Shown here one piece after another: positions 4,402 to 47,531 of a stretch of DNA of 64,000 bases. Within the stretch, counting starts at the first letter, position 1; each line of letters starts with the position of its first letter. The stretch is from contig DYTN01000004.1 of NCBI GenBank assembly GCA_020725925.1, positions 2,802 to 66,801 of the forward strand. Reading direction: 5' to 3'. The translations under genes and the position numbers were made by a program. The notes below the pieces were generated by a model, which was not told the DNA's origin, made no database searches, and worked only from the letters and a program-made list of their open reading frames with translations. The DNA comes from Methanobacteriota archaeon (GTDB lineage: Archaea; Thermoplasmatota; Thermoplasmata; UBA10834).

Positions 4402-4506
4402 GGGGCTGTAGCTCAGCTAGGTAGAGCAACCGGCTCTTACTGTGCTGCTTCTGGCTGCGCAGGGGACACCGGTTGGCCAAGGGTTCGAATCCCTTCAGCC
4501 CCGCCA
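4402..4506 (+). tRNA. tRNA-Lys (anticodon CUU) with an intron of about 28 nt (roughly 4440-4467) next to the anticodon loop; CCA is encoded
   Basis: Hand fold. Acceptor GGGGCTG/CAGCCCC pairs perfectly. D-arm is GCTC-AGCTAGGTA-GAGC. Anticodon stem is ACCGG/CCGGT with loop CTCTTA(C) and anticodon CTT. T-arm is AAGGG-TTCGAAT-CCCTT. Discriminator is G, followed by CCA. Confidence 0.8.
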
Positions 4507-13599: not shown

Positions 13600-16500
13600 C
13601 TACAGCCTAGAGAGATCCTCTTCCTCTGCCGGCTTCTTCTTCTGAGGCCGCTGCTCCTTCGAACGCCTTCTGGGCCGCTCCTCCGCCTCCTCGCGCTCCT
13701 CTTCCTCGGGCTCTTCCTCGGGTTCCCGCCCACGCTCGCGCCTGCGCTCCCTGGTCTCCTCGACCGCCTTTAGGGGCGTGTTGCACCTCGGGCACCTATC
13801 CGACCCCCGCACGCACTCCTTGCACAGGATGGCCTTGCACTTCTGGCATCTCGCTACCGCGATCCCGCCATGGAACAGGCATCTCCTGCCGACGAGGTCA
13901 GAAGGCACCTCCTTCTCCTTGCGCTCCTCCTCCCTGGGGAGCCTCTGCTTGGGCGCTCGCTCGCGGGGCCTCTCCCTGAAGGCCTCGACCTCCCTGCTGT
14001 ACCTGGGCCTGACCCTCGGCGGCTCCTCCTCCACTTCCTCCTCGTACTCCGAAGGCATCGGAGGAGCTCTCCTGTGCGGCTCCCTCGGCTCCTCCCTGTA
14101 GGCCTCCTCCCGCGGAGGCCGCTCGCGCCTCATCGCCCTTTCATCATACGGCATGTACTGCCCGTAGCCCTCGCTCACGATGGATTTCAGCGAGACAGTC
14201 GGGGACTCGTACCCTGCGCCCTCGAAGGTCTGCAGGATGGTCGTGAGCTGTCTCGCCCAGTAGGCCCCGATCCCCAGGTTGCGGATCAGGCCCAGCACGT
14301 TCTTCTGGTCGTTCGGTATCTCGAGGGCCTGCCTGAGCAGCGCCTCTGTCTGCGGGTCGGTGGACTTCGTGCTGAACTCGTGGTTGTCGACGGCCTGGAT
14401 GTAGCTCAGGATCTTCTTCGCGCTCGAGATCTTCAGCTCAGGGAAGTTGACCGTGATGTCGCACAGCCTGAGCCCGTGCGCCGCGAGGTCCCGCTTCTCC
14501 ATGGCGTTCACGAGCACCTCCCGGGACATCTTCTCGTACCTGTCGAACTCCTCCTTGCTCATGCCCGACAGGCTGATCTCCGCCTTGCCGCTCAGGAAGT
14601 CCATGACGTCGCCCAGGAAAGCGTACGGTATGCCGCAGACCCTGAAGGCCTCCTCCTTGGTGACGGGCCTGCCGTTGGAGTACTCGAAATCGAGCACCGA
14701 CCTCGCGTAGTCCTCTATCTTGCTCTTCCGGATGTCCGCCTCTGCCTGCTTCCGCCCCTCCGTCGCCGCCTCGAAGTACGGGTCGATGCTGAGCGCGTGG
14801 TCGAAGCACCTGAGGGCCTGCTCCGGCCGGTTGAGCGTGAGCAGTACCTGGGCCTTGCTCTTCCAGGCCTCTTTGTCGTTGGAGTCGAGGCCTATCGCCC
14901 TGTCGTACGAACTCACGGCTTCCTCGAACAATCCTTGCTTCTCCATCGCGTAGCCCTTGCTCATCCAGATCTTCGAGTTGGAGCTGTCGATGTCGAGGGC
15001 CTTGTCGAAGCAGTTGTTGGCGTCCTGGAACCTGTTGACTTCCAGGTGCAGGAGCCCGAGCCTGTACCAAGCCGCCTGGTCCGTCTGGTCGGCTTCTAGG
15101 GCCTTCATGTAGGACTTGATGGCCTCCTCCTTGTTCCCCGTGGCCTCGAACGCCTTCGCCCTGCTCTTCCACATGTCCTTGTCGTTCGAGCCCAGCCTGA
15201 TGGCCTCATCGAACGAGCCCAACGCTTCAGAGACCCTGTTGAGCTTCAGCAGGGCCATGCCCATGTACTTGAAGGTGGAGACGTCGTTCGGCGAGAGCCT
15301 CCTGGCCTCGTTGAACGAGCCGATGCTGTCCTCGAACCTGCCCATGGCTGCGAGCGCGCGCCCCTCGTTGGTGTGGAACTCAGCCGCGTTGGGGAGTATC
15401 TTGATGGCCTTCTTGAAGTCCGAGAGGGACTCCTCGAACCGCCTGAGCTCGAGGTACGCCCTGCCCCTGTTGTTCAACACGAACGGCTGGCTCGAGTCCA
15501 ACTTGATGGCGTGCTCGAACGACTCCGCGGCCTGGGCAGGGTTCCCGGCGGCGAGGAGCAGCAGCCCCTTCCTGTTCAGCAGGAATATGTCCTTCGGGTC
15601 CAGGACCAGAGCGCTCTCGTAGCTCCTGAGGGCCTCGTCGCTCCTCCCGAGCTTCTCGAGGGCGCTCGCGCGGTCGGAGAGCGCGTTCTTATTCTTCGGG
15701 CTGATCCGGAGTATCTGGTCGGTGACATGGATGACGCTCTCAGGCTCGTCCAAAGCGATGAGCGCGAGCTTCTTGAGCTCGAGCGTGTCGAGGTCGTCTG
15801 TGTGATGCTCAAGGGCCTTGTTGAAGCAGGCGAGCGCCTCGTTCGGGCGCTTCAGGAACAGGGAAGCGCTGCCCTTGTCCAGGAGCGCCTCTCGGTCCTT
15901 CGGGGAGACCTGAAGGATCTCGTTGCAGACGGCTGTGACCTCCTCGTTGCGCTTCAGGGACTTGAGCAGGTCCTTCTTCGCGTTGAGCACGGGGATGTTC
16001 TTGGCGGAGATCCTGAGCGCCTCGTCGTACGCCCTCAGGGCCTCCTCCATCCTGCCGAGCTTCGTGAGTATCTGGCCCTCCTTGATCCTCAGCTCGGACG
16101 AGGCCACGTTGAGCCGGACGGCCTCCCTGATGGATGTGAGGGCCTCGTCCCTGCGCTCGAGCCACTCGAGCGCGAGCGTTCTCTGGAGCCAGATATCCGG
16201 GTCCCTCGGGTCAACCTTGAGCGCGCGGTCGAAGGAGACGAGCGCCTGCTCGTACCTCTTCAGCTCTATCAGCGCCTTGCCCATGGTCGTGTACGCCAGC
16301 TTGTCGCTCGGGTCCAGCTCGACGGCCTTCGCGTACGAGCTCACCGCCTCGTCGTATTCCTTGCCTCTGAAGGCCGCCTCGCCCCTCACGCGCCAGAGCG
16401 CGATGCTGTTCGGGGCGGCATGCAGGCCCTGTTTGGCGTAGTCAAGGGCCTCCTTCGGCTTGCCCACCCTGAGGAACATGGACGATACGTTGTAGTAGAC

Positions 16501-18060
16501 TTCGGGGTTGCTAGGATCGTGCTTCAGCGCGAGCCTGTACGCCGCGAGGCTGTCGTCGAACCTCTCAAGCCTGTCCAGGGCGACGGCCTTGTCGAAGTGC
16601 GCCGCCTTGTTCTTCTCGTCCGCGGCGATGATCCTGTCGCATGTGTGGATGACGTCGGCATCCTTCTGCAGCTGCTTGTAGGCCTCCTTGAGGCTCTCGA
16701 GCATCGGGAGCTGGTCCGGGGCGCTCTTGAGTGCCTTCTCGAAGGTCTTGACCGCGTCATGCGGCTTCGCGGACTTCATCTGGGCAACGCCCTTGTCGTG
16801 CATGGCCACGAGGTCGTTGGGATCGAGGTCCAGGATTCTGTTGCACACTGCTATGACCTCGCCGTGCCTCTGTAGCTTGATCAGGCAGTCCTTCTTGAGG
16901 AACAGCGAGTCCTTGGATTTCGGGGACAGGTTGAGCGCAGCGTCTGCGAATGTAAGTGCCTCGCCATGCCTGCCCAGCGCTGCCAGCGCCTTCGCCTTGT
17001 CCAGAAGAGTTTCGTGGTCCTGAGGGCTGAGAAGGAGTATCCTGTCGCATGTCGCGGCAACGTCCTCGTGCCTCCCCGACTTCTGGAGGGTCTTCTTCCT
17101 GTTCACGAGCACGTTGAGGTCGTTCGGATCGATCCTGAGGGCCCTGTCAAAGGATTCGAGGGCCCTGTCGTGCATGCCTAGCTCCTCCTGCACAACCCCC
17201 AGCTCGTTCCAGACGATCTTGTTGCCGTGGTCTATCTCCGCCGCTTTGGAGAAGCACTCGAGCGCCTCTTGTGGTCTGCCGAGCTTGTGAAGAATGCGGC
17301 CCATGTTGTCAAGGCAGTACGCGTCGTTCGGGTCCACCTTGAGGGCGGCACCGAGCGACTGCACGGCCTCCTCCCTCTTGCCCGCGAGGTTCTGTGAGGT
17401 CGCTTTTGCTATCCAGAGGTCCTTGTCCTTGGGCTTGAGCTGTATGGCCGCCTGGAACGTGCGCGTGGCGTCGTCATGTCGCTGCAGGCGCGTGAGCGCG
17501 AGCCCCTTCTTTCGTATCATCTCGACATCGCTGGGCGTGTGCGCGAGTATGCCGTCGTAGTGTATGATCCCGTCCGGGTTGATCTCGATGGCCTTCCCGT
17601 AGCTGTCGACCGCGTTCGTGATTTCACCCGCGACGTCGTACGCCTCCCCGAGTGCGTGCCAAAGCATCTCAGCCTGAGGGACTAAGGCGACGGCCTTCTT
17701 CAAGGAGCTGATCGCCTCCTGGGTCATGCCTAGCCTGAGCGCGGCCCGTCCCTCGACCCCCATCGCCTCCGCGTTGTCACTATTCAGCTGGAGGGCGACC
17801 TTGGCGGCATCCTGGGCCATCTGCGCGCGGTCGAATGTGAGGTACTTCGCCCCGAGGGCGGAGAATATCTGGGAGAACTCCACCCTCATCTTGCCGATGA
17901 AGAGCATGTTCTCCTTGAGCATGTTGCTGGTCTTGTCGAGCTCGGCGAGGGCCTCCTTGGGCCTGCCGCCGCGCTCGAGCGAGTCGACTTTGGCCAGTTC
18001 CTTCTTGGTCTTCTCGAGGAGCTTCTTCTCCTTGTTCAGCAGAGCATCGAACAATCCCAA
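13600..18060 (-). CDS. Giant TPR-repeat protein (1486 aa) with a C-terminal Cys zinc ribbon and a highly charged Glu/Arg-rich tail
   Basis: More than 30 tandem 34-residue TPR-like units (W/L-G-Y-A-F-P pattern) over about 1000 aa. Then a non-repeat region, a zinc ribbon CLFHGGIAVARCQKCKAILCKECVRGSDRCPRCN, and an ERRRERGREPEEEPEEEEREE tail. Confidence 0.75.
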   Translation of the reverse strand: MGLFDALLNKEKKLLEKTKKELAKVDSLERGGRPKEALAELDKTSNMLKENMLFIGKMRVEFSQIFSALGAKYLTFDRAQMAQDAAKVALQLNSDNAEAMGVEGRAALRLGMTQEAISSLKKAVALVPQAEMLWHALGEAYDVAGEITNAVDSYGKAIEINPDGIIHYDGILAHTPSDVEMIRKKGLALTRLQRHDDATRTFQAAIQLKPKDKDLWIAKATSQNLAGKREEAVQSLGAALKVDPNDAYCLDNMGRILHKLGRPQEALECFSKAAEIDHGNKIVWNELGVVQEELGMHDRALESFDRALRIDPNDLNVLVNRKKTLQKSGRHEDVAATCDRILLLSPQDHETLLDKAKALAALGRHGEALTFADAALNLSPKSKDSLFLKKDCLIKLQRHGEVIAVCNRILDLDPNDLVAMHDKGVAQMKSAKPHDAVKTFEKALKSAPDQLPMLESLKEAYKQLQKDADVIHTCDRIIAADEKNKAAHFDKAVALDRLERFDDSLAAYRLALKHDPSNPEVYYNVSSMFLRVGKPKEALDYAKQGLHAAPNSIALWRVRGEAAFRGKEYDEAVSSYAKAVELDPSDKLAYTTMGKALIELKRYEQALVSFDRALKVDPRDPDIWLQRTLALEWLERRDEALTSIREAVRLNVASSELRIKEGQILTKLGRMEEALRAYDEALRISAKNIPVLNAKKDLLKSLKRNEEVTAVCNEILQVSPKDREALLDKGSASLFLKRPNEALACFNKALEHHTDDLDTLELKKLALIALDEPESVIHVTDQILRISPKNKNALSDRASALEKLGRSDEALRSYESALVLDPKDIFLLNRKGLLLLAAGNPAQAAESFEHAIKLDSSQPFVLNNRGRAYLELRRFEESLSDFKKAIKILPNAAEFHTNEGRALAAMGRFEDSIGSFNEARRLSPNDVSTFKYMGMALLKLNRVSEALGSFDEAIRLGSNDKDMWKSRAKAFEATGNKEEAIKSYMKALEADQTDQAAWYRLGLLHLEVNRFQDANNCFDKALDIDSSNSKIWMSKGYAMEKQGLFEEAVSSYDRAIGLDSNDKEAWKSKAQVLLTLNRPEQALRCFDHALSIDPYFEAATEGRKQAEADIRKSKIEDYARSVLDFEYSNGRPVTKEEAFRVCGIPYAFLGDVMDFLSGKAEISLSGMSKEEFDRYEKMSREVLVNAMEKRDLAAHGLRLCDITVNFPELKISSAKKILSYIQAVDNHEFSTKSTDPQTEALLRQALEIPNDQKNVLGLIRNLGIGAYWARQLTTILQTFEGAGYESPTVSLKSIVSEGYGQYMPYDERAMRRERPPREEAYREEPREPHRRAPPMPSEYEEEVEEEPPRVRPRYSREVEAFRERPRERAPKQRLPREEERKEKEVPSDLVGRRCLFHGGIAVARCQKCKAILCKECVRGSDRCPRCNTPLKAVEETRERRRERGREPEEEPEEEEREEAEERPRRRSKEQRPQKKKPAEEEDLSRL

Positions 18061-18870: not shown

Positions 18871-18982
18871 TGCAGGTGCCGGGATTCGAACCCGGGCCGT
18901 TGGCTTTCGTCCCTCTCCATTTTATCTTCTTTCAACGGAGCGGCTGGAAGGCCAAGATCCTAACCAGCTAGATTACACCTGC
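18871..18982 (-). tRNA. tRNA-Gly (anticodon UCC) with an intron of about 40 nt (roughly 18905-18944) adjacent to the anticodon loop; no encoded CCA
   Basis: The reverse-complement strand folds. Acceptor GCAGGTG/CACCTGC. D-arm ATCT-AGCTGGTTA-GGAT. Anticodon stem TTGGC/GCCAA with loop CTTCCA(G) and anticodon TCC. T-arm CCGGG-TTCGAAT-CCCGG. Discriminator A. Confidence 0.75.
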
Positions 18983-20551: not shown

Positions 20552-21553
20552 TTAAGCGACAAAAGCCGATGCCTTGTCCTTCCACCGACCAACGTATTCC
20601 GCAAACATATGCTCGCTGCTCTTGAAAAGGGAGACCGGTCTCCCTCTCTCTACTGAGAAGACGCCAATTTCAGCCATCTGTGAAGCTCGAGATAGGACTT
20701 TGCTCTGTGGTTTGGGCTTGATTCCGTAGAGTCTGTGCTGATACTCTGAGAGATCCTTGTCGCTCATCCCGAGTCTTCTGTCTGCGAAATATGACGGGAG
20801 ATAGTTTGAGTTTGTCAGTCTTATGAAGGGCGTTATGTGTGTAAAATGAAGGAGATCAGCCATATATGCATGACCCTTCAGAATCGATTCAGACAATACG
20901 GTTGCATAAAGGTCCTCCAAGCTGCTGTCTTCCTTCAACTTCCTCGCACCGATCTCTCCGAAAACGTACTGCCCATCTTCCTTCTTCAGAATCTCCAATT
21001 CCACAAGGAACCTCAGGTACTGATTGACCTTGGTCTTGGATCTCCTTCCGTGAACGAAATCTGAAGCCTTGACAGTGTTTCTCATAACCACATTCGTTAC
21101 TATCTCATAGAGCGGGTTCATCTGATTCCGGATCTGATACAGCCTAAGGAATCGGCCGCCAATCACGCCCAGTAGTGCTCCTTCAGAACTGCTTCTGAAG
21201 CTGCCGAACTTAGATTCGATTCGCTCCGCAACGAACTTGCGATTTGGCAAGTCCAAATGCCAGCCGCCTTCGTCATGATCCACCTTGGTCTCGAAGACAT
21301 CCCTGAAGGGAGTGAACCTGACCTTGAAGAATCCTTCAGACGCGTCCCAGAGGTGTTGCTCTTTGACCGTCCCAAATGAATACACTTCCTCATTTCTGGC
21401 AGATGGCAATTCAGATAGAAAGAAGGACGTCCCCATGGTCCTGCGAACCAATGCCTCCACTTCGCGGGTGGAAACCTTCTGAGTGGTTAGAGGAATCCTG
21501 ATTATTTCGGACTCAGCTTTCGAGTTAGTCATGGTTCGCACCCATAATCCCAT
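20552..21553 (-). CDS. Hypothetical 333-aa protein, downstream partner of the C39-like peptidase
   Basis: ATG-initiated ORF overlapping the 3' end of the peptidase gene by 29 nt, which suggests translational coupling. Low GC. No recognised domain. Confidence 0.5.
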   Translation of the reverse strand: MGLWVRTMTNSKAESEIIRIPLTTQKVSTREVEALVRRTMGTSFFLSELPSARNEEVYSFGTVKEQHLWDASEGFFKVRFTPFRDVFETKVDHDEGGWHLDLPNRKFVAERIESKFGSFRSSSEGALLGVIGGRFLRLYQIRNQMNPLYEIVTNVVMRNTVKASDFVHGRRSKTKVNQYLRFLVELEILKKEDGQYVFGEIGARKLKEDSSLEDLYATVLSESILKGHAYMADLLHFTHITPFIRLTNSNYLPSYFADRRLGMSDKDLSEYQHRLYGIKPKPQSKVLSRASQMAEIGVFSVERGRPVSLFKSSEHMFAEYVGRWKDKASAFVA

Positions 21554-22175
21554 ACTTGTCTAGTGGTCCAGCAGGTCTCTGAACCCACATCACCCAGCGG
21601 GTCTCTTTACCCTCATCCCAGTATTTCAGCATTCTCACATCGGGGAGTGAGTTCTTGAAGCTTATTGCTCTACTCATATGTCCGGCAAATGGTTTGTAGG
21701 GGTCATGAAACCATACCATGCCGTCTTCAATCGCAACGACAACGAGGACATGATCCAGAATCATGCCTTCGAGATTGACCGGTTGCTGAGTGTGGTATTC
21801 AGGGCTTACGCCGACAATTGGATAAGATGCTGCCTCATCTTCGATTATTGATTTCAGCATCTGGAGCGTATTTCCACGATCTGCCTTCTCGAATACCCTG
21901 AAGGGGCTCCGCTTCTTGGCCAGATGGCTGTTGATGCTGGGAGTGACCGTCCCAATGGCACACCCTACTCCCTTTACATAGCCACATAGCTCATGCATGG
22001 TGCTCATCTTGATTCTCAACTCAGGAGATCCGGTCCTGGTCGCCAGGTCATCAAAGATATTCTTGAGGCAGGTCGGCCAACAAGTGTCTTTCAGATGCTG
22101 GACTTGCCATTTTGATGTCAGAAGTTCGAACTCAATATCATCCATTGTACCAGGCCTTGATTGATTTGCGAGCAT
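21525..22175 (-). CDS. Papain-like (C39-like) cysteine peptidase
   Basis: Gln/Cys-Trp catalytic motif QHLKDTCWPTC and His motif DHVLVVVAIEDGMVWFHDP (HxVVV...DP, as in the peptidase C39 family). The ORF is open to 22223, where the ORF track calls a TTG start; the first in-frame ATG (MLANQ) is at 22175. Confidence 0.45.
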   Translation of the reverse strand: MLANQSRPGTMDDIEFELLTSKWQVQHLKDTCWPTCLKNIFDDLATRTGSPELRIKMSTMHELCGYVKGVGCAIGTVTPSINSHLAKKRSPFRVFEKADRGNTLQMLKSIIEDEAASYPIVGVSPEYHTQQPVNLEGMILDHVLVVVAIEDGMVWFHDPYKPFAGHMSRAISFKNSLPDVRMLKYWDEGKETRWVMWVQRPAGPLDKYGIMGANHD

Positions 22176-22838
22176 TCCCCCAGATGCAGAGTTGATTATG
22201 CTGCATGTACCTCTCCTAGGCAACTACGCAGCAATCGAGTACTATCAGATAAATCCTTCCTGTGCCTGGATGAGGTGCATCGCGACAGAAACGCACCATT
22301 CAACAACTCATGCTTGACGATGAACTCACATAACTGCCTGAGACACTTGCGGGGTTCACATTCTGATGCATATGAACCGGGCTTCATCGAGACTTCTTTG
22401 CCTGCAGAGATGATGTTCTGATTCTGAACTCGTAGGCGGTCTGGCAGGCATCAAACGCTTGGAGCCTTACACTGTTCAAAACAAGACTCGGGCCTCGGAA
22501 AAGACCTCTATGATGAAGTGTCCCCTGCGCCTGGTCTGAATCGATGTTGTCGTTCTTCTTGGTTTGCCTCCGGTCGGGTTTCAGTCTGATTGGAGTTCGG
22601 ACATGCCTCCATTTGCGGTTTTCCCGTGATATGGCCACTTCGTCCATTGTCAGGGATCATCCCCAATCCCTACGTCGCACTCATTGCGTGCAGGAAGAAG
22701 ACCGGGGTCCAATCCTTGACTGCGACGTGAGGTCTCTGGAACCGAGCATAGCATGGCCTCTCGCTTATTCGTAGTTTCGCCTCTTGACGCAGGCGAAGAC
22801 CCTCTTCCACATACCATCCTTGTGGGCATTCTCGGAAA

Positions 22839-23573
22839 TTGAATACGATGAAGGTCGCGTTTCGCGAAATGCATATAAATGAATCAGCACATAACTTGGT
22901 CATGACATTCAAGATTAGTCCGAAGTACGATGCCGACTATCTGAAGGGAGATTCTGATATCGACAAGAAGTTGGACGTTTTTGAGGATCGTACGAAAGGA
23001 TGGACCCTTGAATGGGCCAAGAGACTCAGCGAGACTGAGCACGCTGGCTTCGCCGCGCTTGCTATAGCTCTCACTTACTTTGAAGCTCATGCTATCTACT
23101 ATAAGGGTGAGAGTTCAAATCCCAATAAATCGAAACAATTCTTCCGCGATGCATTCATTGATGTTTATGGGCATCATGTTCTTGGGATGGACCTGGCTGG
23201 CCGAATTGCAGATAATGTGTATGACCAAGGACGTTGCGGACTCTTCCACGAGGGAATGACAAAGGCAAAATTGCTGTTGAGGGATGATAACGGATCTGTG
23301 ACCTACTCCGAGGATTTCAACACTCATGAGCTTGTTGAGATATCGATAAATGTTCAAGAGTTCGTAAAGGAAATCGAGGCACATTTCCAAGAATACATGC
23401 AGAGACTACGAAAAAGCAGTGAAGTGACGTTGCGCAGGGATTTCGAGAGGTCATGGGACCGGGACTATCAACTCTCCATTCAGGCTTTGAGACAAGGCAC
23501 ACCGACGGAGGCGGTCCCAAGCACTCCACCGAATCCGGCTGCATCAGGTTCTCATTTGAGAGGGAACCCATAG
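22839..23573 (+). CDS. Hypothetical 244-aa protein with a possible HEPN-like Rx4H motif
   Basis: QGRCGLFHEG contains R-x4-H. There is no other motif. Low GC. Confidence 0.4.
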   Translation: MNTMKVAFREMHINESAHNLVMTFKISPKYDADYLKGDSDIDKKLDVFEDRTKGWTLEWAKRLSETEHAGFAALAIALTYFEAHAIYYKGESSNPNKSKQFFRDAFIDVYGHHVLGMDLAGRIADNVYDQGRCGLFHEGMTKAKLLLRDDNGSVTYSEDFNTHELVEISINVQEFVKEIEAHFQEYMQRLRKSSEVTLRRDFERSWDRDYQLSIQALRQGTPTEAVPSTPPNPAASGSHLRGNP

Positions 23574-23664: not shown

Positions 23665-24966
23665 TTACTGTGGGGCTGGATTGCCCACAATTGATGCCTC
23701 GATTTGGCGAATCATTTCATCGCGAGATTGAATTTGATCCTTCAGGCACTTGCACAAGGCCTCTCGAGTAATCTCCTCCATGGCCGACGTTTGAGCCATA
23801 AGCTTGCTCTGGTCAAGATTTCTGGCGCCATGCAAGAGAAGTCCTCGTGCACGGTAAGCCTCCTTGACGGTGGCACGAATCTTCTTTCTTTCGACCGGTT
23901 CGGTCCCCAGGAAGTGAGCGATTCTCAGGCTGAGTCTATATGCGAACTCTCCGAATTCGACATCCTCTCCGAACAGCGATTCACAGGCAATCCAGTAATC
24001 AACCAAGGCTTCGTCCGGCCGTGGCCTGTCCACTGCATCACAGAATCTCTGAAGAGCCACCTTCCAGAAGGGAGGCTGTTTTTCTGCAATCTGTTCTACT
24101 AGCTTCCAGTAATGCCTAAGTCTAGGCAGACTCTGACTTTGGAGTGTGTAAGGTCTGCCAACTATTCTCCGTCGTGGGTAGGCAGTGCCTACGCGAACCG
24201 ACATGCCAGTCCAGCTCAGTGGTCGGCACCAGATAGTATCAAACCCTACTGACCCCGTCTCAGTCAACTTCATGATAGCTACGAACCACCAAAAGCAGTC
24301 TTGGTGCGTCTGTGTGAGTGCTGGGAAACCCCGCTTGACGACTGCTGTCATTTCAAGCACGAATCTCAGATGCCCGAATGGGAAGATTCTCGCTAGCGAA
24401 TCAGAGTCTGCTGCGATGCCATTGTACACAGCAAACTCATCAGCGTTCAACTTGCGAATGTTGAAAGGACCGACACGCTCCATGTCTGCTTCCATGGCGA
24501 AGTTGGCAAGCGGAGCTGAGAGGAGGTACTCGTCTTCCTCGCTGTTTAGGTAGTCTTCGAATGACTTGTAGTTCGATTCAAACTCTGCTTCCTTGAACTC
24601 GACGCCATCTTGCATGATTAGCTGGCGCGTAATCATTGGCTGGAGAATGTTGTATGCAAATGCCATGGGAACTACAGACGCTCCTTTGTCTTTGAGCAGA
24701 CTTGCTATGCTGCCGTGCCGAAGGAGGCCATTGGTCAAGGCTTCATTGGTCTTGTCATTGACGAAATCCAACGCAGTCGTTGCAGCAAGCAGTCGAAAGT
24801 CAGGCTTCGATTCTGACCCTACTGAAAAGGAACCATCCTTGCCAAACTCCACCTTGGGAACAAGCCTCTGTGGGAGTCCTCCTCTTCGGAGCACCGAGTC
24901 CCTAAGGACGCTCATGTAGCGAACAGTGAGGTCCTTGAGGGCGTTATACAAGATCTGATCTCGCAT
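23665..24966 (-). CDS. HEPN-domain abortive-infection-like protein (Abi/Apea-like)
   Basis: The C-terminal region YRLSLRIAHFLG ... KEAYRARGLLLHGARN contains the canonical HEPN Rx4-6H motif. Size is 433 aa. It lies in the low-GC island. Confidence 0.5.
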   Translation of the reverse strand: MRDQILYNALKDLTVRYMSVLRDSVLRRGGLPQRLVPKVEFGKDGSFSVGSESKPDFRLLAATTALDFVNDKTNEALTNGLLRHGSIASLLKDKGASVVPMAFAYNILQPMITRQLIMQDGVEFKEAEFESNYKSFEDYLNSEEDEYLLSAPLANFAMEADMERVGPFNIRKLNADEFAVYNGIAADSDSLARIFPFGHLRFVLEMTAVVKRGFPALTQTHQDCFWWFVAIMKLTETGSVGFDTIWCRPLSWTGMSVRVGTAYPRRRIVGRPYTLQSQSLPRLRHYWKLVEQIAEKQPPFWKVALQRFCDAVDRPRPDEALVDYWIACESLFGEDVEFGEFAYRLSLRIAHFLGTEPVERKKIRATVKEAYRARGLLLHGARNLDQSKLMAQTSAMEEITREALCKCLKDQIQSRDEMIRQIEASIVGNPAPQ

Positions 24967-25915: not shown

Positions 25916-26950
25916 ATGTATGTCTGGCTAGAGCGGTTTCGTGTCTCGCCGCCGACTCCGAGACCAACGGCATACGTTTCATATCGAATGATTTACAATA
26001 CCCATCAGCTCGGTATGCCGAACATTCGCAAATCTGTATTCGGCTCAAGGTCGGAAAGGAATCTGTACGCTACTCTTACTTCTAGATGGTCCAACCGTTT
26101 CAACGTTTACCCGAACCTTCCTTTCCTCAATATCATCGAAGTCAAGAAGAACGAACTGCCCGTCTTCGACTTTGAGGTTTTGAAGAAATCGAGCGTTGAT
26201 TACACACTCTGCACCAAGGATGACGCACCCGTTCTATCAATCGAATTCGATGGACTCGGCTACGGCTTCTCCCGAGATGGGAAGTACGTTCCCGTCGTCT
26301 ATGACATTCCCGACCCATACAGGCAGGAAAAGATGAATCGAAAATTGAGGGCCGCCGACAAAGCGAATTACCCTCTCGTAATACTGTCCTATTTCGAGAA
26401 GGAACCGATCGGCAAAGATCTTCAGATAACCTTGGTTGACGGAATCATCGGACAGATCCTTTCGAGACGACGGTTTGATGAACTGATGAATGAACGTCTC
26501 AAGGAGGAACCCGACATTCTGTCAAGACTATCCAAACGGGAGATGGATGACCTGATTGATGGCATCGAGATAGAGGCAGATTTCGAGGAGAATCCTCTTT
26601 CGCGGAAGGCGGCAATCGCTGAGGTGGAAGCTGTGAAGCGAGGCCTCTTGAAACGATGGTCATTCCATTATTTTGAGGAGCCTACTGCACCTGACCTCCT
26701 TTCCTGGCCGCCTGATCCTGAATCTCTTTCACGGAGAATTGATGCACTCAGGAACGCCGAATGGATTGGTGCTCGTATTGTTTCTGACACCCCTTCTGGG
26801 ATAGTATTGGAAACCGCAGCGAAAATCCGGAGCATCTCGGGCCATGGAGTCTCTCCCTTGATTCTCGTTGAGGATATCGTCAGACTTCTGCATGCAACGA
26901 AACTGCTGGACGACCACACTGAAGAGATCCCTAACAGAACCTCAACCTGA
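25916..26950 (+). CDS. DUF2726/NERD-like PD-(D/E)xK-type nuclease-related protein
   Basis: VDYTLCTKDDAPVLSIEFDGLGYGF fits the DUF2726 core (DF-hl...p-l-IE-DG), recalled from memory. 344 aa, low GC, next to the methyltransferase. Confidence 0.35.
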   Translation: MYVWLERFRVSPPTPRPTAYVSYRMIYNTHQLGMPNIRKSVFGSRSERNLYATLTSRWSNRFNVYPNLPFLNIIEVKKNELPVFDFEVLKKSSVDYTLCTKDDAPVLSIEFDGLGYGFSRDGKYVPVVYDIPDPYRQEKMNRKLRAADKANYPLVILSYFEKEPIGKDLQITLVDGIIGQILSRRRFDELMNERLKEEPDILSRLSKREMDDLIDGIEIEADFEENPLSRKAAIAEVEAVKRGLLKRWSFHYFEEPTAPDLLSWPPDPESLSRRIDALRNAEWIGARIVSDTPSGIVLETAAKIRSISGHGVSPLILVEDIVRLLHATKLLDDHTEEIPNRTST

Positions 26951-27027: not shown

Positions 27028-28563
27028 TTATGAAGAGTGCTCAGATAGCCTCGACTGTTTCTCCCTCTTCGCCAGCGGCTGTTTCTTCGCCTTTGGAGCT
27101 TGTGTGAATGTGGGATTGGTCTCCCTTGATGATACTGAATCAGGGCACTCAACCTTCTTGCCCTTCAATAGGTCTTCTATCGTAAGTAGCTGGATTCTCG
27201 GGTACTTCGGATTCCCAAGTTCTTTTGAAGTATAGAATCCCGCATCGGCGGCTTCAGAACGCATCTGTGGGGTGGGCTCGTTCAGACTGATCAACACGCC
27301 AATTGCAGCCTTCTCACGATCCACGACTCCATGTAGGTCTCTGACGTGGGCTGATGTTACATTGCCGGCCTTCACCGAGAATATGATTTGCTCCGACTTG
27401 GACCTCTCCACGAAGAAGTATAGGCGGCCGTCGATTCCCTTGTCAGCGCCCTTCTTCTGCTCGACGGGTCTAGCGCCTACTAGTCCGAGAGCCCACCATT
27501 GGAATTGGTATGGGTCTTGCTGGGCCAGTGCCTGCGCATCAGGTAGCGATACTGGTTCCCCAATCACCGTGTAGGATACCGTCTCTCCAAAAGCATCCTT
27601 GAGGCGATGTCTCATGAGTGTGATCGCAAGATGGGTGATATCAATTCCAATCCACTGTCTCCTCAGACGCTGGGCAACAGCAATTGTGGTCCCACAACCG
27701 CAGAACGGATCAAGCACCAAATCGCCCTCATTGCTACTCGTCGAGATAATCCGCTCAAGTAGACTTTCGGGCTTCTGAGTGGGATACCCAAGCCTCTCCT
27801 TCTTTGAGCCTGCAATGATTGATAATTCCCACACATCTCTCCGAGGCATGCCCCGAGTCTCCGCCTCCAACGTTATCTTCCTTGTTCCAGTCTCTGGGTC
27901 CAGCATCTGTGTCTTACCCTTGAACCTCTTCCAGTAGCTCTCGCTGACTGGTTCGTAGTCGACATTAAAGGTAATCGTTTGATTCGGGTCTCTCACATAG
28001 AAGAGAATCACGTCGTGCATGCGCTGATACATCTTCGAAGGCGTCGGCCACCTCCGATAGCTCCAGATGATTTCATTCTTGAAACAAGCTGGACTAAAGA
28101 CGGCATCCATAAGAATCTTGAGATGATGGCTTGCCGTTGGATCGCAATGCAGGTATATCGTCCCAGCTTGCTTGAGGACTCTCTTCATCTCGATTAGTCG
28201 GGGCGCCATCATTGATAGATAGGCGAGCATGTCGTTTGACCTGAGGATTCTTCTAAAAGCCTCCATTGTGTCTGCAAGCCTGCCGCCAAATGTGAGTGCA
28301 TCTTCGAATGCTTTGGCAGCTGCTTGGTCCCAATGCCAGGTGTCCTCAAAGGCCATGATTTGGGCTGCGGAACTGCTTCCATTGTGTTCCTTGAAAAGTA
28401 CGTTGTAATCTTGACCACTCTGAAAAGGTGGGTCAAGATAGATCAGATCAACGGTCTCGTCCTTGATGTACCGCTTGAGAATGTCGAGGTTGTCTCCGTA
28501 ATAGAGCATGTTTTCGGCTTTCCCTTCTGGCGTGTCCATCGTGTGGGAAATGGCTATTTGCAT
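27028..28563 (-). CDS. Beta-class N6-adenine/N4-cytosine DNA methyltransferase fused to a C-terminal Mrr-like restriction-endonuclease domain
   Basis: Motif IV DPPF (IYLDPPFQSGQDYN) precedes motif I (VLDPFCGCGTTIAVAQRL), which is the beta-class order. The C-terminal 150 aa carry KGADKGIDGRLYFF ... IIFSVKAGN, resembling the Mrr catalytic core (GIDG ... QxK-like). Confidence 0.7.
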   Translation of the reverse strand: MQIAISHTMDTPEGKAENMLYYGDNLDILKRYIKDETVDLIYLDPPFQSGQDYNVLFKEHNGSSSAAQIMAFEDTWHWDQAAAKAFEDALTFGGRLADTMEAFRRILRSNDMLAYLSMMAPRLIEMKRVLKQAGTIYLHCDPTASHHLKILMDAVFSPACFKNEIIWSYRRWPTPSKMYQRMHDVILFYVRDPNQTITFNVDYEPVSESYWKRFKGKTQMLDPETGTRKITLEAETRGMPRRDVWELSIIAGSKKERLGYPTQKPESLLERIISTSSNEGDLVLDPFCGCGTTIAVAQRLRRQWIGIDITHLAITLMRHRLKDAFGETVSYTVIGEPVSLPDAQALAQQDPYQFQWWALGLVGARPVEQKKGADKGIDGRLYFFVERSKSEQIIFSVKAGNVTSAHVRDLHGVVDREKAAIGVLISLNEPTPQMRSEAADAGFYTSKELGNPKYPRIQLLTIEDLLKGKKVECPDSVSSRETNPTFTQAPKAKKQPLAKREKQSRLSEHSS

Positions 28564-29105: not shown

Positions 29106-29522
29106 ATGCAACTATCGCGTTATCGCACTATCGCAGGCAATTGGGAGAGGAGCGAGATGGCAAAAGCAACAATGACGATGCCCTCTGGAACAACGGTTGT
29201 GATCGAAGGCTCAGAGGGGGAAATCGAAACTATACTCCGACGAATCGATAAGGCACCTGAGAAGAGTCGCGCTCGGACAACCGAGCGATCGAAAGGCCGC
29301 AAAGGAGAGTCCGAGAAAGCTCTCGGGGACTACGTCTTGGAGCTGCGAGAGGCCGGCCTCTTCGAGAAGCCGCAAGGACTCGCCGACATCAAGAACGCTC
29401 TTCAGGCCGAAGGGCATATTGTCCCCATCACTACATTGTCAGGGGTCATGCTCAGAAGGGTCAAGAACCGCGAGCTGCGTCGATTCAAAGAAGAGAAGAC
29501 TTGGAAGTATGTCAAACGATAG
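29106..29522 (+). CDS. Small basic protein (138 aa), paralog of the next gene; probable winged-helix-like domain
   Basis: Shares the pattern LRxxGxFxxPxxxxxxxxLxxExHxxPxxxxxxxxxRxxxRxLRR with the 29562 ORF. Confidence 0.4.
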   Translation: MQLSRYRTIAGNWERSEMAKATMTMPSGTTVVIEGSEGEIETILRRIDKAPEKSRARTTERSKGRKGESEKALGDYVLELREAGLFEKPQGLADIKNALQAEGHIVPITTLSGVMLRRVKNRELRRFKEEKTWKYVKR

Positions 29523-29933: not shown

Positions 29934-30737
29934 ATGGAAATAACCAAACAAGCAAGAATCGAAATGGAATCAAAGAAACTCGCAATGAAGATTCGGAATG
30001 TGAAGAGCGAACTTCCTGATATTCACTCGCTTCAGAGCCCGCTACACAAGTCACTGTGGGCACTCGCGGCAGCTAAGGAGGCAGGGGAGGACAGACCTCT
30101 GACATCGCAGAGAATGAGGATTCTTCTCGAGGTGTTCGATGTGGCAATCACGGACAGTCAGATCACAAACGCCCTGTCCAGATCCGGGGACAAGATCATC
30201 AGGAAGAATCGCGATGGAGTGCGAGGATACAAGATTGCCTTCACCGGTAAGACAGCTCTCATGAATACCGCTGGTGGGGAAGGTATCGAGGTGATATATG
30301 CAGAACCCGGCAACCGATGGAAGGCGCGAAGGCAATTGAGTGAACTTGCTGGCTCATTGAAGGGAGACCTTCTAGCTGTCGACAAGTATTATGGAGAGAG
30401 GACCCTGTACACACTCGAAACTCTAGCTAATCGCAAAGAGAATGTGCGATTCATTACATCCCATACAAGAGAGAATGCGCAGAAGCTCTCTGCGCTCTTT
30501 GGAGACCTCATGAATGCCAAGCCGAACTTGGAGGTTAGATTGTATTCCGGGAAGCATGACCTGCATGATAGGTACATCCTGTCAGACGATGCTCTTGTAC
30601 TGGTTGGTCACGGCCTCAAGGATTTGGGAGCGAGCGAGTCGTTCGTTGTTCGACTTGACACCAGGGTTGTCGGTGAACTCATGTCGCTTGTACGATGTAG
30701 TTTTGAAGATCGTTGGAGCAAATCGACTCCCATTTAG
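29934..30737 (+). CDS. Hypothetical 267-aa protein with an N-terminal wHTH-like region and a possibly divergent PLD-like (HxK to HxR) C-terminal motif
   Basis: C-terminal SGKHDLHDRYILSDDALVLVGHGLKD loosely resembles the HxKx4Dx6GSxN phospholipase-D/nuclease motif, with Arg in place of Lys and GHG in place of GSxN. The N-terminal region resembles the two small upstream proteins. Confidence 0.35.
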   Translation: MEITKQARIEMESKKLAMKIRNVKSELPDIHSLQSPLHKSLWALAAAKEAGEDRPLTSQRMRILLEVFDVAITDSQITNALSRSGDKIIRKNRDGVRGYKIAFTGKTALMNTAGGEGIEVIYAEPGNRWKARRQLSELAGSLKGDLLAVDKYYGERTLYTLETLANRKENVRFITSHTRENAQKLSALFGDLMNAKPNLEVRLYSGKHDLHDRYILSDDALVLVGHGLKDLGASESFVVRLDTRVVGELMSLVRCSFEDRWSKSTPI

Positions 30738-30866: not shown

Positions 30867-31264
30867 AGAAAATGACACGGAAAGGAATTGTTCCCTTCGA
30901 CTTCTTCGTATTCTAGTTATGGTGCGGTCGACCAATCCGCTTTCGATTGCAGCGGCAATCTTCCTGCGGCGCATGAATCTAGGGGTTGGTCGATTATCTC
31001 GTGTCCTAGACCTCTGCAACGATTCTAGCGCGCTAATCGGGGCCTCCCTCAGCCTTCGAACAGATCAAGCCAGTGTCTCAAGAAATGAGGGAAAAACTGC
31101 AATTTACATGAACGGTCAAAGGGGCTTATGTCCTTCACCTGGCACATTCTTGACATACTGGCTTCGTACCTCCCATAAAGGTTAATATGGGACGGCATCG
31201 TTGGTGGCGCTCACGAACAGAGCAAGGTTCCAGATCGACATTCTTATCAGAGCCAGGGGGAAGC

Positions 31265-32293
31265 ATGCTGAAGAGCGGTTTCGTGCCGAGGATTCTGTCC
31301 TGGAACACCACTAACAGATGTAATCTCAAATGCGCTCACTGCTACATGGATGCGAAGGACAGAGCGAGCACTAACGAGCTCACGACTGATGAGGGCAGGA
31401 AGCTCATAGACGAGATTTCTGAGGTTTCCAAGTGCGTCCTCGTTCTCAGCGGCGGGGAGCCGATGCTGAGAGCAGACATCTACGAACTGGCTGCTCACGC
31501 GAGATCCAAAGGACTCCGGGTCGTCATGGGCACGAATGGTACCTTGATTTCAAGAGAGGCTGCGAGGAATCTAGTCTCGGCAGGAGTATCCAGAGTCGCC
31601 ATATCCCTGGACGGGTGCGATGCGGCAATGCACGACTCGGTCAGGAGGGTTGAGGGTGCGTTCGAGGCCGCAATTGCGGGTGCGGAGGCCTGCAGGACCG
31701 CAGGTCTCGAGTTCCAGGTGAACTCGACGGTTTTCCCCCACAGCTTCAGTAGGATTCCTGACACTATCAGGACCGCGAAGAGAATCGGTGCGGCGGAGTT
31801 CCACCTGTTCTTTCTCGTCCCCACTGGTAGAGGTGTGTCCTTGAAGGACGTCGGCCCTTGGGACTACGAGAACATGCTACACCAGCTCTTGCCTCTTGAG
31901 AAGGAGGTCGGAATCCACATAAAGCCGACCTGCGCTCCGATGTACATGCGGGTATCCAAGCAGAGAGGAGGGAACGCCACAGAGAGATACTCACGGGGCT
32001 GTCTGGCCGGGATTTCGTACTGCAGGATAAGTCCGGAGGGAGGGGTTTACCCGTGCCCGTACCTGCCACTGGAGGTCGGCAGCGTTCGATCCCACAGCTT
32101 CGGAGAGATCTGGTTCAACGCACCCTTGTTCGCCGACCTGAGGAACTTCTCAAAGCTCAAGGGGAAGTGCAGAGTGTGCGAATTCAACGATATCTGCGGT
32201 GGCTGTAGGGCGCGGGCGTACGCGCTCGCTGGCGACGTTCTCGCTCCTGATCCGTGGTGCGTTCATGTGCCCAAGAGGAATCGAAATGGTTAG
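31265..32293 (+). CDS. Radical-SAM/SPASM enzyme of the AhbC/AhbD (NirJ-like) family: Fe-coproporphyrin III synthase or heme synthase
   Basis: CNLKCAHCY (CxxxCxxC) radical-SAM cluster motif and a C-terminal Cys-rich SPASM region (CRVCEFNDICGGCRARA), in an ahb/hem cluster. The start is more likely the MLKSGF methionine than the ORF-track start at 31187. Confidence 0.7.
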   Translation: MLKSGFVPRILSWNTTNRCNLKCAHCYMDAKDRASTNELTTDEGRKLIDEISEVSKCVLVLSGGEPMLRADIYELAAHARSKGLRVVMGTNGTLISREAARNLVSAGVSRVAISLDGCDAAMHDSVRRVEGAFEAAIAGAEACRTAGLEFQVNSTVFPHSFSRIPDTIRTAKRIGAAEFHLFFLVPTGRGVSLKDVGPWDYENMLHQLLPLEKEVGIHIKPTCAPMYMRVSKQRGGNATERYSRGCLAGISYCRISPEGGVYPCPYLPLEVGSVRSHSFGEIWFNAPLFADLRNFSKLKGKCRVCEFNDICGGCRARAYALAGDVLAPDPWCVHVPKRNRNG

Positions 32294-32780
32294 AGGACAT
32301 CCCGACTATCTTGACAAGAAGCTGGTCGCTGAACTCCAGCTGAGGTTTCCCCTGACAGAGAGGCCGTTCGAGGAAGTGGGGAGGCGACTTGGACTTTCGG
32401 AGGCGGAAGTGCTGAGCCGAACCCGGGAAATGATCCGCGAGGGAATCGTCCGGAGAATCGGATACATGGCGGGGAAGAGTCTTCAGAAGATGAAATCGAG
32501 CACACTCGTCGGAATGAAAGTCGAGACGGACAGAGCTGACTGGGCAGCGTCGGTCATCAGCAACTACAGAGAAGTCACCCACAACTATCTCCGAGACAAC
32601 GAACTCAATCTTTGGTTCACGGTGAGCGCATCCGACCGAGGACGTCTCGAGGACGTGGTTCGGGAAATTGTGACGAAAGTGCGGCCGCTCGACTGGATCG
32701 AGCTGCCATCCGTGAAGTCCTTCAAGCTTCTCACACCATCTGTCGGCATTTCCGAACAGGGGGTATCTTCACTTGGCTGA
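32286..32780 (+). CDS. Siroheme decarboxylase subunit (AhbA/AhbB, NirDL-like Lrp/AsnC fold)
   Basis: LDKKLVAELQLRFPLTERPFEEVGRRLGLSEAEVLSRTREMIREGIVRRIGY matches the NirD/L/G/H pattern. The ATG overlaps the upstream stop codon. Confidence 0.65.
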   Translation: MVRGHPDYLDKKLVAELQLRFPLTERPFEEVGRRLGLSEAEVLSRTREMIREGIVRRIGYMAGKSLQKMKSSTLVGMKVETDRADWAASVISNYREVTHNYLRDNELNLWFTVSASDRGRLEDVVREIVTKVRPLDWIELPSVKSFKLLTPSVGISEQGVSSLG

Positions 32781-33228
32781 CCTCACGATTCTAAGGGCAG
32801 TGGAAGACGGCATCGAGATGGTACCGAGGCCCTTCGAGGCAGCTGCGAAAAGGGCCGGCACTGACGAGGAGTCTGTGGTTCGCGAATTGAAAACTGTGCT
32901 CGAAAATGGCACGATACGCTTCTTCGGGGCGATCGTGGACCACAGAACTCTCGGGAAGCTCGTCAATGCGATGGTCGCGTGGGATGTGGAGGACAGCGCG
33001 GTAGATTCAGTCGGCAGGTCGTTCGCCGCAATCCCGATGGTCAGCCACTGTTACGAGAGGACGAGGGTTCCTGGCAAGTGGAAATACAACCTGTTCACAA
33101 TGGCTCACGCTGGGAACGAAGATGAACTCGAAGCGTTTCTCAAGGAGGGGCGTCGCCTGACGACAGGCGCAGACTGCATCGTGCTCAGGACCCTGAAAGA
33201 ATACAAGAAGACGGGGGTGAAGTTCTGA
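32773..33228 (+). CDS. Siroheme decarboxylase subunit (AhbA/AhbB), second paralog
   Basis: Same family (LTILRAVEDGIEMVPRPFEAAAKRAGTDEESVVRELKTVLENGTIRFFGA). Tandem with the previous gene. Confidence 0.65.
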   Translation: MADLTILRAVEDGIEMVPRPFEAAAKRAGTDEESVVRELKTVLENGTIRFFGAIVDHRTLGKLVNAMVAWDVEDSAVDSVGRSFAAIPMVSHCYERTRVPGKWKYNLFTMAHAGNEDELEAFLKEGRRLTTGADCIVLRTLKEYKKTGVKF

Positions 33229-33248
33229 AGTCGTCACTTGTCCCTCTG

Positions 33249-33863
33249 ATGATAGATTTCAATGGGAGGTTGGTGATCATCATCGGAGGAGGGCAGGTTG
33301 GTCTCAGGAAGGCGAGTGTCTTCTGTCGCGCAGGAGCTGATGTGCGCGTGATCAGCAAGGATTTCGCGAAGGGATTCAAGAGACTCCCCGCGAAGCTTGT
33401 GAAGGTCAGGAACTTCGAAGACCTGGGGTTGCTGAAGCATGCGTTCCTCGTGGTTGCAGCCACGAACGACCATGACCTGAACTCGCAAATCAAGCGCTCG
33501 TGCCGAGAGGCGGGAGTGATGTGCAACTCAGTGGACGACGAGGATTCAGATGTGTACCTTCCCTCAATCATCGCGCGAGGTCCCCTGACCATCTGCATAA
33601 GCACCCGTGGTGCGAGCCCAGCCCTTTCAAAGAGAGCCCGAATCATGATAGAGGAATTCATAGGGCCTGAATGGGGAAAGATGGCCGTCCTGTTGGCCGA
33701 GGCTAGAGTGATGCTCAAAAGCTCAATTGCCGCTCAGTCGTCGAGGAAGGAGGTCCTGAGTGGGATCCTCAATGACAAGGCAATATGGTCACAGCTGAGG
33801 AAAGGAGACATCGCAGGGGCGCGACGAACGATAACCAAGAGGCATCTGGAGGGAGGCAAGTGA
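33249..33863 (+). CDS. Precorrin-2 dehydrogenase / sirohydrochlorin ferrochelatase (SirC/CysG N-terminal domain-like)
   Basis: NAD-binding motif LVIIIGGGQVGLRKASVFCRAGADVRVI. At 204 aa the size is typical for SirC. Confidence 0.65.
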   Translation: MIDFNGRLVIIIGGGQVGLRKASVFCRAGADVRVISKDFAKGFKRLPAKLVKVRNFEDLGLLKHAFLVVAATNDHDLNSQIKRSCREAGVMCNSVDDEDSDVYLPSIIARGPLTICISTRGASPALSKRARIMIEEFIGPEWGKMAVLLAEARVMLKSSIAAQSSRKEVLSGILNDKAIWSQLRKGDIAGARRTITKRHLEGGK

Positions 33864-35119: not shown

Positions 35120-35120
35120 A

Positions 35121-36101: not shown

Positions 36102-36104
36102 GCG

Positions 36105-47465: not shown

Positions 47466-47531
47466 GCCGGATTTGAACCGACGGTCACGTGGTCCCGAAC
47501 CACGGATCATACCAAGCTAGACCACTACCCC
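47458..47531 (-). tRNA. tRNA-Pro (anticodon CGG), 74 nt, no encoded CCA
   Basis: The reverse-complement strand folds. Acceptor GGGGTAG/CTACCCC. Anticodon stem CGTGG/CCACG with loop TTCGGGA and anticodon CGG. T-arm GTCGG-TTCAAAT-CCGGC. Discriminator A. The D-stem has one mismatch and a 9-nt loop. Confidence 0.65.

Follow-up and report, generated by a model that had tools for sequence, protein, structure and literature searches.

A C39-like papain-fold enzyme and a winged-helix protein encoded as a mobile gene pair in archaeal defence islands and integrative elements

Described protease modules and the archaeal pair

Among the described systems, those closest to the locus considered here are the following: (i) the ImmA-ImmR, CapP-CapH and IrrE-DdrO pairs; (ii) the staphopain-staphostatin operons (scpAB, sspBC) and SpeB-Spi; (iii) CalpL-CalpT-CalpS, Csx29 (TPR-CHAT)-Csx30 and gasdermin with its caspase-like protease; (iv) the C39 domains of the PCAT/AMS ATP-binding cassette (ABC) transporters and the stand-alone Peptidase_C39_2 proteins; and (v) the pseudomurein endoisopeptidases of methanogen viruses. 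The locus itself consists of two genes, here called A and B, in a stretch of 64,000 nucleotides (nt) of a Thermoplasmatota archaeon (assembly GCA_020725925.1, contig DYTN01000004.1, positions 2,802 to 66,801), referred to below as the window. Protein A is a stand-alone, soluble cysteine peptidase with a papain fold; it belongs to the C39/C39_2/C70 branch and retains the complete Gln-Cys-His-Asp set, from which its peptidase activity is inferred. Protein B belongs to a previously unclassified family of DNA-binding type that has no Pfam entry. Together, the two genes are a self-contained operon of archaea, horizontally mobile and transferred as a unit with its own promoter-like block.

The pairs of the first group likewise bring together the genes of a protease and of a DNA-binding protein, on mobile elements and beside defence systems, and they are the closest analogy for how the archaeal pair might work. 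The ImmA-ImmR-type proteases are Zn metallopeptidases (HEXXH, COG2856/M78) and their repressors are small Xre-type helix-turn-helix (HTH) proteins. In contrast, A is a Cys-His enzyme of papain fold and B a three-domain winged-helix protein of 326 amino acids (aa); no homology links the two sets, and neither A nor B has a Pfam or PADLOC match to Zn metallopeptidase or Xre-type HTH families.

Staphopains and SpeB are secreted virulence proteases with pro-regions, and their inhibitors are beta-barrels of ~110 aa without DNA-binding domains; no similarity of B to the staphostatins was detected. In the CalpL, Csx29 and gasdermin modules, a cytoplasmic protease acts as transducer or effector within a small defence-island operon, and in this respect the pair can be likened to them. 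Those proteases have Lon-like or caspase-like CHAT folds and are activated by CRISPR or cyclic-nucleotide sensors, whereas A has another protease fold, no such sensor is linked to the pair and PADLOC gives no match.

As for its fold, A resembles the C39 domains of PCAT1, ComA and LahT, as well as stand-alone Peptidase_C39_2 (PF13529, PDB 3erv). Unlike canonical C39 domains, A is neither part of a transporter protein nor encoded beside one, is not associated with the membrane and lacks a double-glycine peptide substrate in its vicinity. It also differs from C39 and C39_2 proteins in its conserved C-terminal extension (Y/H-W...W.MW) and in its obligatory winged-helix partner. To the pseudomurein endoisopeptidases PeiR, PeiW and PeiP (MEROPS C71) A is only 14% identical; it lacks their pseudomurein-binding repeats and has no secretion signal, and B has no counterpart there. 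The hosts of the pair seem to be archaea of Thermoplasmatota type, and these lack pseudomurein. A pseudomurein-lytic, PeiR-like role was hence rejected: binding repeats and secretion signal are missing and the hosts are of the wrong type. In short, the pair resembles known protease-containing conflict modules in kind, and its composition, a C39-like peptidase with a new winged-helix family, appears to be new.

A two-gene unit inherited and transferred as a whole

A preliminary interpretation of the window (the sequence-only reading) had described two overlapping open reading frames (ORFs) on the minus strand, and both are present (Table 1). Shorter products than the longest ORFs are backed by public gene calls (identical or near-identical proteins) and by N-termini conserved among homologues. 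With these homologue-supported starts, the A/B junction is an 8-nt overlap, ATGACTAA, which recurs identically in the related loci L004 and L007; the 29-nt overlap claimed earlier holds for the longest ORFs. The stop of A and the start of B overlap by 1-23 nt in ten of 13 pairs and are separated by no more than 10 nt in the other three. The earlier claim of a translationally coupled gene pair is thus borne out by strict pairing and by this stop/start overlap. Together, A and B make up a cassette of 1.6 kb.

The size of the B family became visible only by a full HMMER scan of 1.84 billion representatives, which returned 165 clusters at E<=1e-3 and 94 at E<=1e-10; word-seeded homologue searches had given 2-5 relatives, and a narrower search with a B alignment found one GTDB genome and four metagenome loci. 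Upstream sequence is available for 14 independent lineages (the window; L001-3; L004-6; L007-9/12; L011; L014; L015; L016; L017; L018; L019; L020; L021; L023), and in all of them B is directly preceded, on its own strand, by a homologue of A, a regularity far beyond chance. For these 14 lineages, this answers affirmatively the question, raised in the sequence-only reading, of whether the B family always occurs with the peptidase. The pairing is kept even where B is ~15-25% identical: in L011, for instance, B is 23% identical (tblastn) and the genes overlap by 4 nt. Over 13 pairs, the pairwise identities of A and of B correlate with r=0.95 and have similar means (0.26 and 0.27); therefore, A and B have been inherited together, without reshuffling.

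An all-against-all comparison of the flanking ORFs left A and B as the only genes common to all loci. When the window is compared with the L007 group, similar DNA (79.7%) extends from 22146 to 20554, that is, over exactly the two coding sequences; nothing is conserved downstream of the pair and the remaining flanks are unrelated. The sole non-coding stretch conserved between the two is the block CAGGAAGGATTTATCTGATAGTACTC upstream of A, which matches L007 at 23 of 26 positions. It comprises a purine-rich stretch and a TATA-like TTTATC, and we take it to be an archaeal promoter element of the BRE (B recognition element)/TATA type. A conserved palindrome was looked for at the cassette and none was found; around the island and the cassette, no att-like direct repeats or inverted repeats were convincing. 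The scan for sigma-70 promoters and terminators relies on bacterial models and is uninformative for an archaeon. Base composition also sets the region apart, as a stretch of ~10 kb around the pair has a GC content of ~0.50 versus ~0.62 for the host genome.

These observations bear on a role in the maintenance or replication of integrative elements, with B as a DNA-binding initiator, partition or excision factor and A as its maturation protease. Integrases, a resolvase or insertion sequence (IS) elements do lie within a few kb of the pair in L014, L017, L018, L019, L020 and L023, and a winged helix in B would suit such a function. Nevertheless, no other element gene travels with the pair, the shared DNA stops at the two coding sequences, and several loci have no integrase within 8-10 kb. 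Besides, IMG/VR (searched with three subfamily scans), INPHARED and PLSDB yielded no homologue of B; such a lack of matches in plasmid, phage and viral-contig collections fits cargo of host chromosomes or of integrative elements and speaks against an element-borne replication factor. Such a role is considered very unlikely.

Regarding the hosts, the related loci carry genes for the RFC small subunit, eIF2-alpha, ribosomal protein L44e and TFIIE-alpha, as well as HVO_2833-like genes, and two of these loci belong to metagenome-assembled genomes labelled Thermoplasmata/Thermoplasmatota. The hosts are archaeal, and the pair is seemingly confined to archaea. In the window, two transfer RNA (tRNA) genes of 102 and 112 nt, found by Rfam and missed by ARAGORN, probably contain introns, as is characteristic of archaea; ~1.3 kb separates the second from the point where the low-GC island begins. 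The Ahb-type haem operon and the HMG-CoA synthase/thiolase genes of the window, described below, likewise point to an archaeon.

The pair also appears to be undescribed, as had been proposed. PADLOC-DB v2.0.0, a resource named for checking in that proposal, has no model for it: the A family gave no hits in 13 members, and the B family gave scattered weak ones (PDC-S47 in 4 of 70 sequences, best 7.6e-4; PDC-M02B in 1 of 70). No description of the pair was found in the literature compared, including studies of C39 proteins in archaeal 'dark matter' islands (PMC4158269, PMC6393860), the classification of papain-like proteins (PMC10318531) and a 2026 survey of archaeal defence (PMC12988326).

The two proteins

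Protein A has the papain-like alpha+beta fold of the C39-like superfamily (clan CA; PF03412, PF13529, PF12385). Its best structural matches are PeiR (score 10.6), the C39 domain of PCAT1 (9.5 and 9.2), LahT (8.9), ComA (8.9) and 3erv (8.7), with staphopain, streptopain, UfSP and cathepsins further down. The motifs quoted in the sequence-only reading, QHLKDTCWPTC and DHVLVVVAIEDGMVWFHDP, are both found in its product. Among 13 A proteins (those encoded upstream of 13 divergent B homologues; 13-84% pairwise identity), Cys22, His132, Asp148, Pro149 and Trp176 are invariant and Gln16 nearly so. Accordingly, Gln, Cys, His and Asp stand in the order of C39 peptidases, with Q-x5-C and ~16 residues from His to Asp, which is the spacing of ComA and PCAT1.

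At the profile level, Pfam Peptidase_C39_2 matches five of the 13 A proteins (best E 1.2e-18), Peptidase_C39 two and C70 one. The best C39_2 score belongs to a distant member from L020. This member, which bears precomputed C70 and C39_2 hits, is connected to the other A proteins at E 3e-5, and among 2309 ORFs no other outside one was matched. The A protein of the window misses every Pfam threshold and has no match in NCBIfam, PADLOC or PDB sequences; three of its four closest relatives match C39_2 weakly (best E 0.015). Fold and catalytic residues agree with the earlier assignment to C39-like peptidases, and A falls in no non-peptidase family.

Since the same fold includes ligases, transferases and a reported glycosidase, 'peptidase' is used here for the activity that these features suggest. 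One alternative is that A is an amide-bond transferase, a ligase or another hydrolase that modifies B or a small molecule. Papain-fold non-proteases (the ligases/acyltransferases CtaG, CcbD and AziU3) do appear among the structural matches of A, the relatives of this fold include BtrH, of transferase/ligase type (PMC10318531), and a C39-like glycosidase has been reported from a methanogen (PMC13642728). Still, it is true peptidases that A matches best, both in structure (PeiR, PCAT1, LahT and ComA) and in profiles (Pfam C39_2, C39 and C70), the full Gln-Cys-His-Asp set is kept with C39 spacing, and genes for carrier proteins or biosynthesis are not in the neighbourhoods. Non-proteolytic activity is therefore given a small chance of being right.

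The classical C39 role, namely the removal of double-glycine leaders from bacteriocins or quorum-sensing peptides in a housekeeping maturation or export operon, is effectively excluded. What speaks for it is the family resemblance of A to C39 peptidase domains. However, A stands alone and is soluble, with no hydrophobic or membrane segment; no ABC transporter or short leader-peptide gene lies nearby in any of the 14 lineages, which also answers the earlier concern that the pair might prove to be a housekeeping operon; and the pair is rare, patchy and of atypical GC content. Nor does the aligned B family contain a conserved Gly-Gly site. A double-glycine or AvrRpt2-type cleavage site in B was also considered and rejected: Gly34 and Gly54 are conserved, but they have a hydrophobic residue at position -2 and lie in predicted structured elements.

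Members of the B family are nearly all 300-330 aa long and match end to end. Two long ones (P0033 and P0103) look like products of mis-called starts or ends, not informative fusions. No Pfam family covers B, and the B protein of the window has no significant match in Pfam, NCBIfam, PADLOC or PDB sequences. Its predicted layout comprises (i) a beta-rich alpha/beta domain (residues ~10-110); (ii) a winged helix (~140-200); and (iii) a helical C-terminal domain. Tyr172, in the winged helix, does not vary among 70 sequences. Conservation in the family peaks in LHFTHITPFIRLTNSNYLPS, whose consensus T..P[FY][IL]R.SN.Y.PS falls on residues 231-247; here the AlphaFold model is unreliable, with a predicted local distance difference test (pLDDT) score of ~30-40. 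B is soluble, without membrane segments, and basic (isoelectric point 9.3 overall and 9.9 in the winged-helix segment), and from these traits DNA binding may be supposed.

B had earlier been regarded as free of recognisable domains. Its winged helix corrects that view and opens a possibility that had been left unconsidered: a proteolytic transcriptional switch of the ImmA/ImmR, CapP/CapH or IrrE/DdrO kind, in which A would cleave the repressor B upon a stress or infection signal and thereby derepress adjacent defence or mobile genes. This is the main rival of the interpretation proposed below, and it is judged fairly improbable. A basic winged helix in B and a protease encoded in the same operon are what such a switch requires. 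On the other hand, the known switches consist of Zn metallopeptidases and small (~100 aa) Xre-type HTH repressors, while here the enzyme is a cysteine one, and B has 320 aa and two extra domains which are more conserved than its winged helix. The bearing of the neighbouring genes on this possibility is considered with them below.

Neighbourhoods and possible function

Table 1. Positions of the pair, its motifs and other features of the window
Feature	Position	Strand	Details
Gene A	21525-22145	-	206 aa + stop; start MDDIEF at 22145
Gene A, longest ORF	21525..22223	-	232 aa; TTG start at 22223
Gene B	20552-21532	-	326 aa; start MTNSK at 21532
Gene B, longest ORF	20552..21553	-	333 aa; ATG start at 21553
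Promoter-like block CAGGAAGGATTTATCTGATAGTACTC	22237..22262	-	~95-115 nt upstream of A start codon
A: Gln16 to catalytic Cys22	22080..22100	-	Q-H-L-K-D-T-C; codons 22100-22098 and 22082-22080
A: His132 to Asp148	21702..21752	-	DHVLVVV and WFHDP; codons 21752-21750 and 21704-21702; 16 residues apart
B: predicted winged helix-turn-helix	20933..21115	-	residues ~140-200, with family-invariant Tyr172 and Leu176
B: segment LHFTHITPFIRLTNSNYLPS	20792..20851	-	residues 228-247; consensus T..P[FY][IL]R.SN.Y.PS
tRNA gene	4402-4503	+	probable intron
TPR-repeat protein	13600-18060	-	1486 aa
tRNA gene	18871-18982	-	probable intron
R-x4-H protein, divergent from pair	22839-23573	+	244 aa; RCGLFH
R-x4-H protein	23665-24966	-	433 aa
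DUF2726-like protein	25916-26950	+	344 aa
Methyltransferase-nuclease fusion	27028-28563	-	511 aa
IS481-like ORF	29106-29522		138 aa
PDC-S05 candidate	29934-30737	+	267 aa
Haem biosynthesis operon	31187-40971	+	GC 0.55-0.60
Second low-GC segment	41000-47531		GC 0.49-0.56
Tyrosine-recombinase gene	46521-47465		opposite strand to tRNA-Pro
tRNA-Pro(CGG)	47458-47531		start overlapped by recombinase gene

The genes within ~8-10 kb of the pair were tabulated for each locus, and these flanks differ in every lineage examined. In the window they comprise a fusion of an N6/N4 methyltransferase with an Mrr-type nuclease, a DUF2726 protein, the PDC-S05 candidate and two proteins with R-x4-H motifs. Elsewhere, the following are found: (i) HSDR_N, HNH, TIR, MmeI-type restriction-modification and IS110 genes (L001-3); (ii) genes for a MORC-like HATPase, a MazG-like protein, an SLFN-type helicase and Dcm methylases with Vsr (L004-6); (iii) DndC/D/E and a SNF2 helicase (L007); (iv) HNH and, directly downstream on the same strand, DUF499-DUF7680-methyltransferase-SNF2 (L016); (v) a methylase and a Bpu10I-type endonuclease (L021); (vi) an integrase, a resolvase, MmeI and two ThsB-TIR genes (L023); (vii) integrases (L014, L017 and L018); and (viii) an IS element or TnpB (L019 and L020). 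The pair is thus an accessory component of archaeal defence islands and integrative elements. In L016, the set DUF499, DUF7680, large N6/N4 methyltransferase and SNF2 helicase (L016:9046-16930) is itself a candidate BREX/DISARM-like system on an archaeal contig.

Protease/repressor pairs such as CapH/CapP and ImmR/ImmA regulate defence islands, and a switch formed by A and B would find comparable surroundings, with the cassette lying beside many different defence systems and integrases. The same-strand genes directly after the pair are DUF499-methyltransferase-SNF2 in L016 and MmeI with ThsB-TIR in L023, the pair is divergent from an HEPN-like gene in the window, and an integrase and a small winged-helix gene precede it in L014 and L015. 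Against a switch, the orientation and identity of the neighbours vary, some flanks are housekeeping, and only the pair and its own promoter-like block move between genomes, so that no conserved regulatory target travels along. The small winged-helix gene (~93 aa; L014:7087-7368 and L015:972-1256) lies directly upstream of A beside the integrase, and its product ends in Gly-Gly. A ubiquitin-like tail was considered for these ends and discarded, as the L017 homologue has no Gly-Gly and is not adjacent to A; the resemblance is probably a coincidence.

In the window, the pair had been said to adjoin HEPN genes. The R-x4-H motifs of the two neighbours are there, and no profile confirms HEPN. The 244-aa protein has a weak match to the JetC coiled coil as its only profile match. 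No Pfam, NCBIfam or PADLOC model recognises the 433-aa protein. In L001-3, at a distance of ~1.6 kb from A and B, there is a homologue of it (L001:6755-7687/L003:6754-7734; 26% identity over 207 aa, E 2e-10), and both carry the HEPN-like R-x4-H motif YR.R...[LV]HG. Judging by this motif, the 433-aa protein may belong to a HEPN family that is still unclassified and turns up repeatedly near the cassette.

Other features of the window deserve mention. In the low-GC island, the methyltransferase-nuclease protein is an unusual fusion of an N6/N4 DNA methyltransferase (E 6e-49) with a C-terminal Mrr_cat/NA-iREase1 nuclease-like domain. The PADLOC model of the candidate single-gene system PDC-S05 recognises the 267-aa protein (E 3e-11), and the ORF beside this gene bears a faint resemblance to IS481 transposases. 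The 344-aa protein falls just under the Pfam threshold for the nuclease-related DUF2726 (23.4 versus 24.7 bits). Between island and host in GC content stands a complete siroheme-dependent (Ahb-type) haem biosynthesis operon, with two radical-SAM/SPASM proteins, two NirDL-like AhbA/B proteins, precorrin-2 dehydrogenase, HemA, HemB, HemL, HemC, CobA and HemD. The second low-GC segment, which ends in the tyrosine-recombinase gene at tRNA-Pro(CGG), is likely to be an integrated element in its own right, distinct from the island in which A and B lie. The window also encodes a pair of HMG-CoA synthase and thiolase, as well as a giant protein that is built of TPR repeats over nearly its whole length and has a BTAD-like N-terminal region.

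Genomic context makes the pair a credible candidate for a defence or toxin function. The interpretation tentatively preferred here, with a likelihood somewhat below even, is that of a toxin-antitoxin-like or abortive-infection module, in which A would be a proteolytic effector and B a DNA-binding controller or sensor. Like toxin-antitoxin systems, A and B are two adjacent genes that move as a unit, with a patchy distribution, among mobile elements and defence islands. A selfish or defensive module is favoured because of (i) the patchy spread, the atypical GC content, the minimal unit with its own promoter-like block and the variable defence and mobile neighbourhoods; and (ii) the coupling of a potentially dangerous cytoplasmic protease to a partner of DNA-binding type. 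In the scheme that we infer, to which the proteolytic activity of A, the A-B complex, DNA binding by B, the choice of the toxic partner and the antiviral effect all belong, the nucleic acid bound by B would be its own promoter or the DNA of an invader, and B would form a complex with A that holds A in check; infection, or the loss of B, would then release or activate A, and the freed A would cleave host or viral proteins.

A natural variant may be relevant in this regard. Three metagenomes share 670 nt that are 100% identical, in which A is intact with a run of eight A residues (A8; L003, European Nucleotide Archive) or frameshifted with A7 (L001 and L002/L013; two Joint Genome Institute datasets), at L001:9590-9600, the same site in L002/L013, versus L003:9590-9600; B is intact in all of them. 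A knocked-out A beside an intact B is what one would expect to see were A the costly or toxic partner, and the A7/A8 difference could reflect phase-variable on/off switching of the protease.

Several points weigh against a toxin-antitoxin-like or abortive-infection module. The A7/A8 difference could also come from a homopolymer assembly error. With the protease gene ahead of that of its larger partner, the gene order departs from what is usual in type II toxin-antitoxin systems, and B, at ~320 aa, far exceeds the size of typical antitoxins; moreover, the binding or inhibition of A by B is itself a proposal. The AlphaFold model of B is poor (pLDDT 53), and a fold can be assigned to just one of the three domains of the protein. 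The non-proteolytic papain-fold relatives of A mentioned above count here as well. Finally, in L011 and L019 one flank is housekeeping, and the island of the window, at whose edge the sequence-only reading had placed the pair, does contain the methyltransferase-Mrr fusion and the PDC-S05 candidate but few profile-confirmed defence genes in all.

A more specific form of a conflict role would make the pair an unrecognised archaeal immune system, in which B, on sensing a viral protein or the invading DNA of a virus or plasmid, would unleash A, and A would abort the infection by cleaving host or viral targets. The system would be specific to archaea and possibly of archaeal origin, and B has no described relatives. 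This form is regarded as somewhat unlikely.

In any case, the pair is worth following. It is compact, strictly paired across deep divergence, moves as a unit, has restriction-modification, Dnd and TIR genes as neighbours and is absent from the catalogues searched; furthermore, it joins a protease fold best known from bacteriocin export to a new winged-helix family. The 2026 survey mentioned above, which covered 7747 archaeal genomes, found nearly one third of them with no other detectable system and urged discovery methods adapted to archaea (PMC12988326). If functional in defence or addiction, the pair would add a protease-based mechanism to the archaeal repertoire and would give a function to ~165 clusters of 'hypothetical' proteins.

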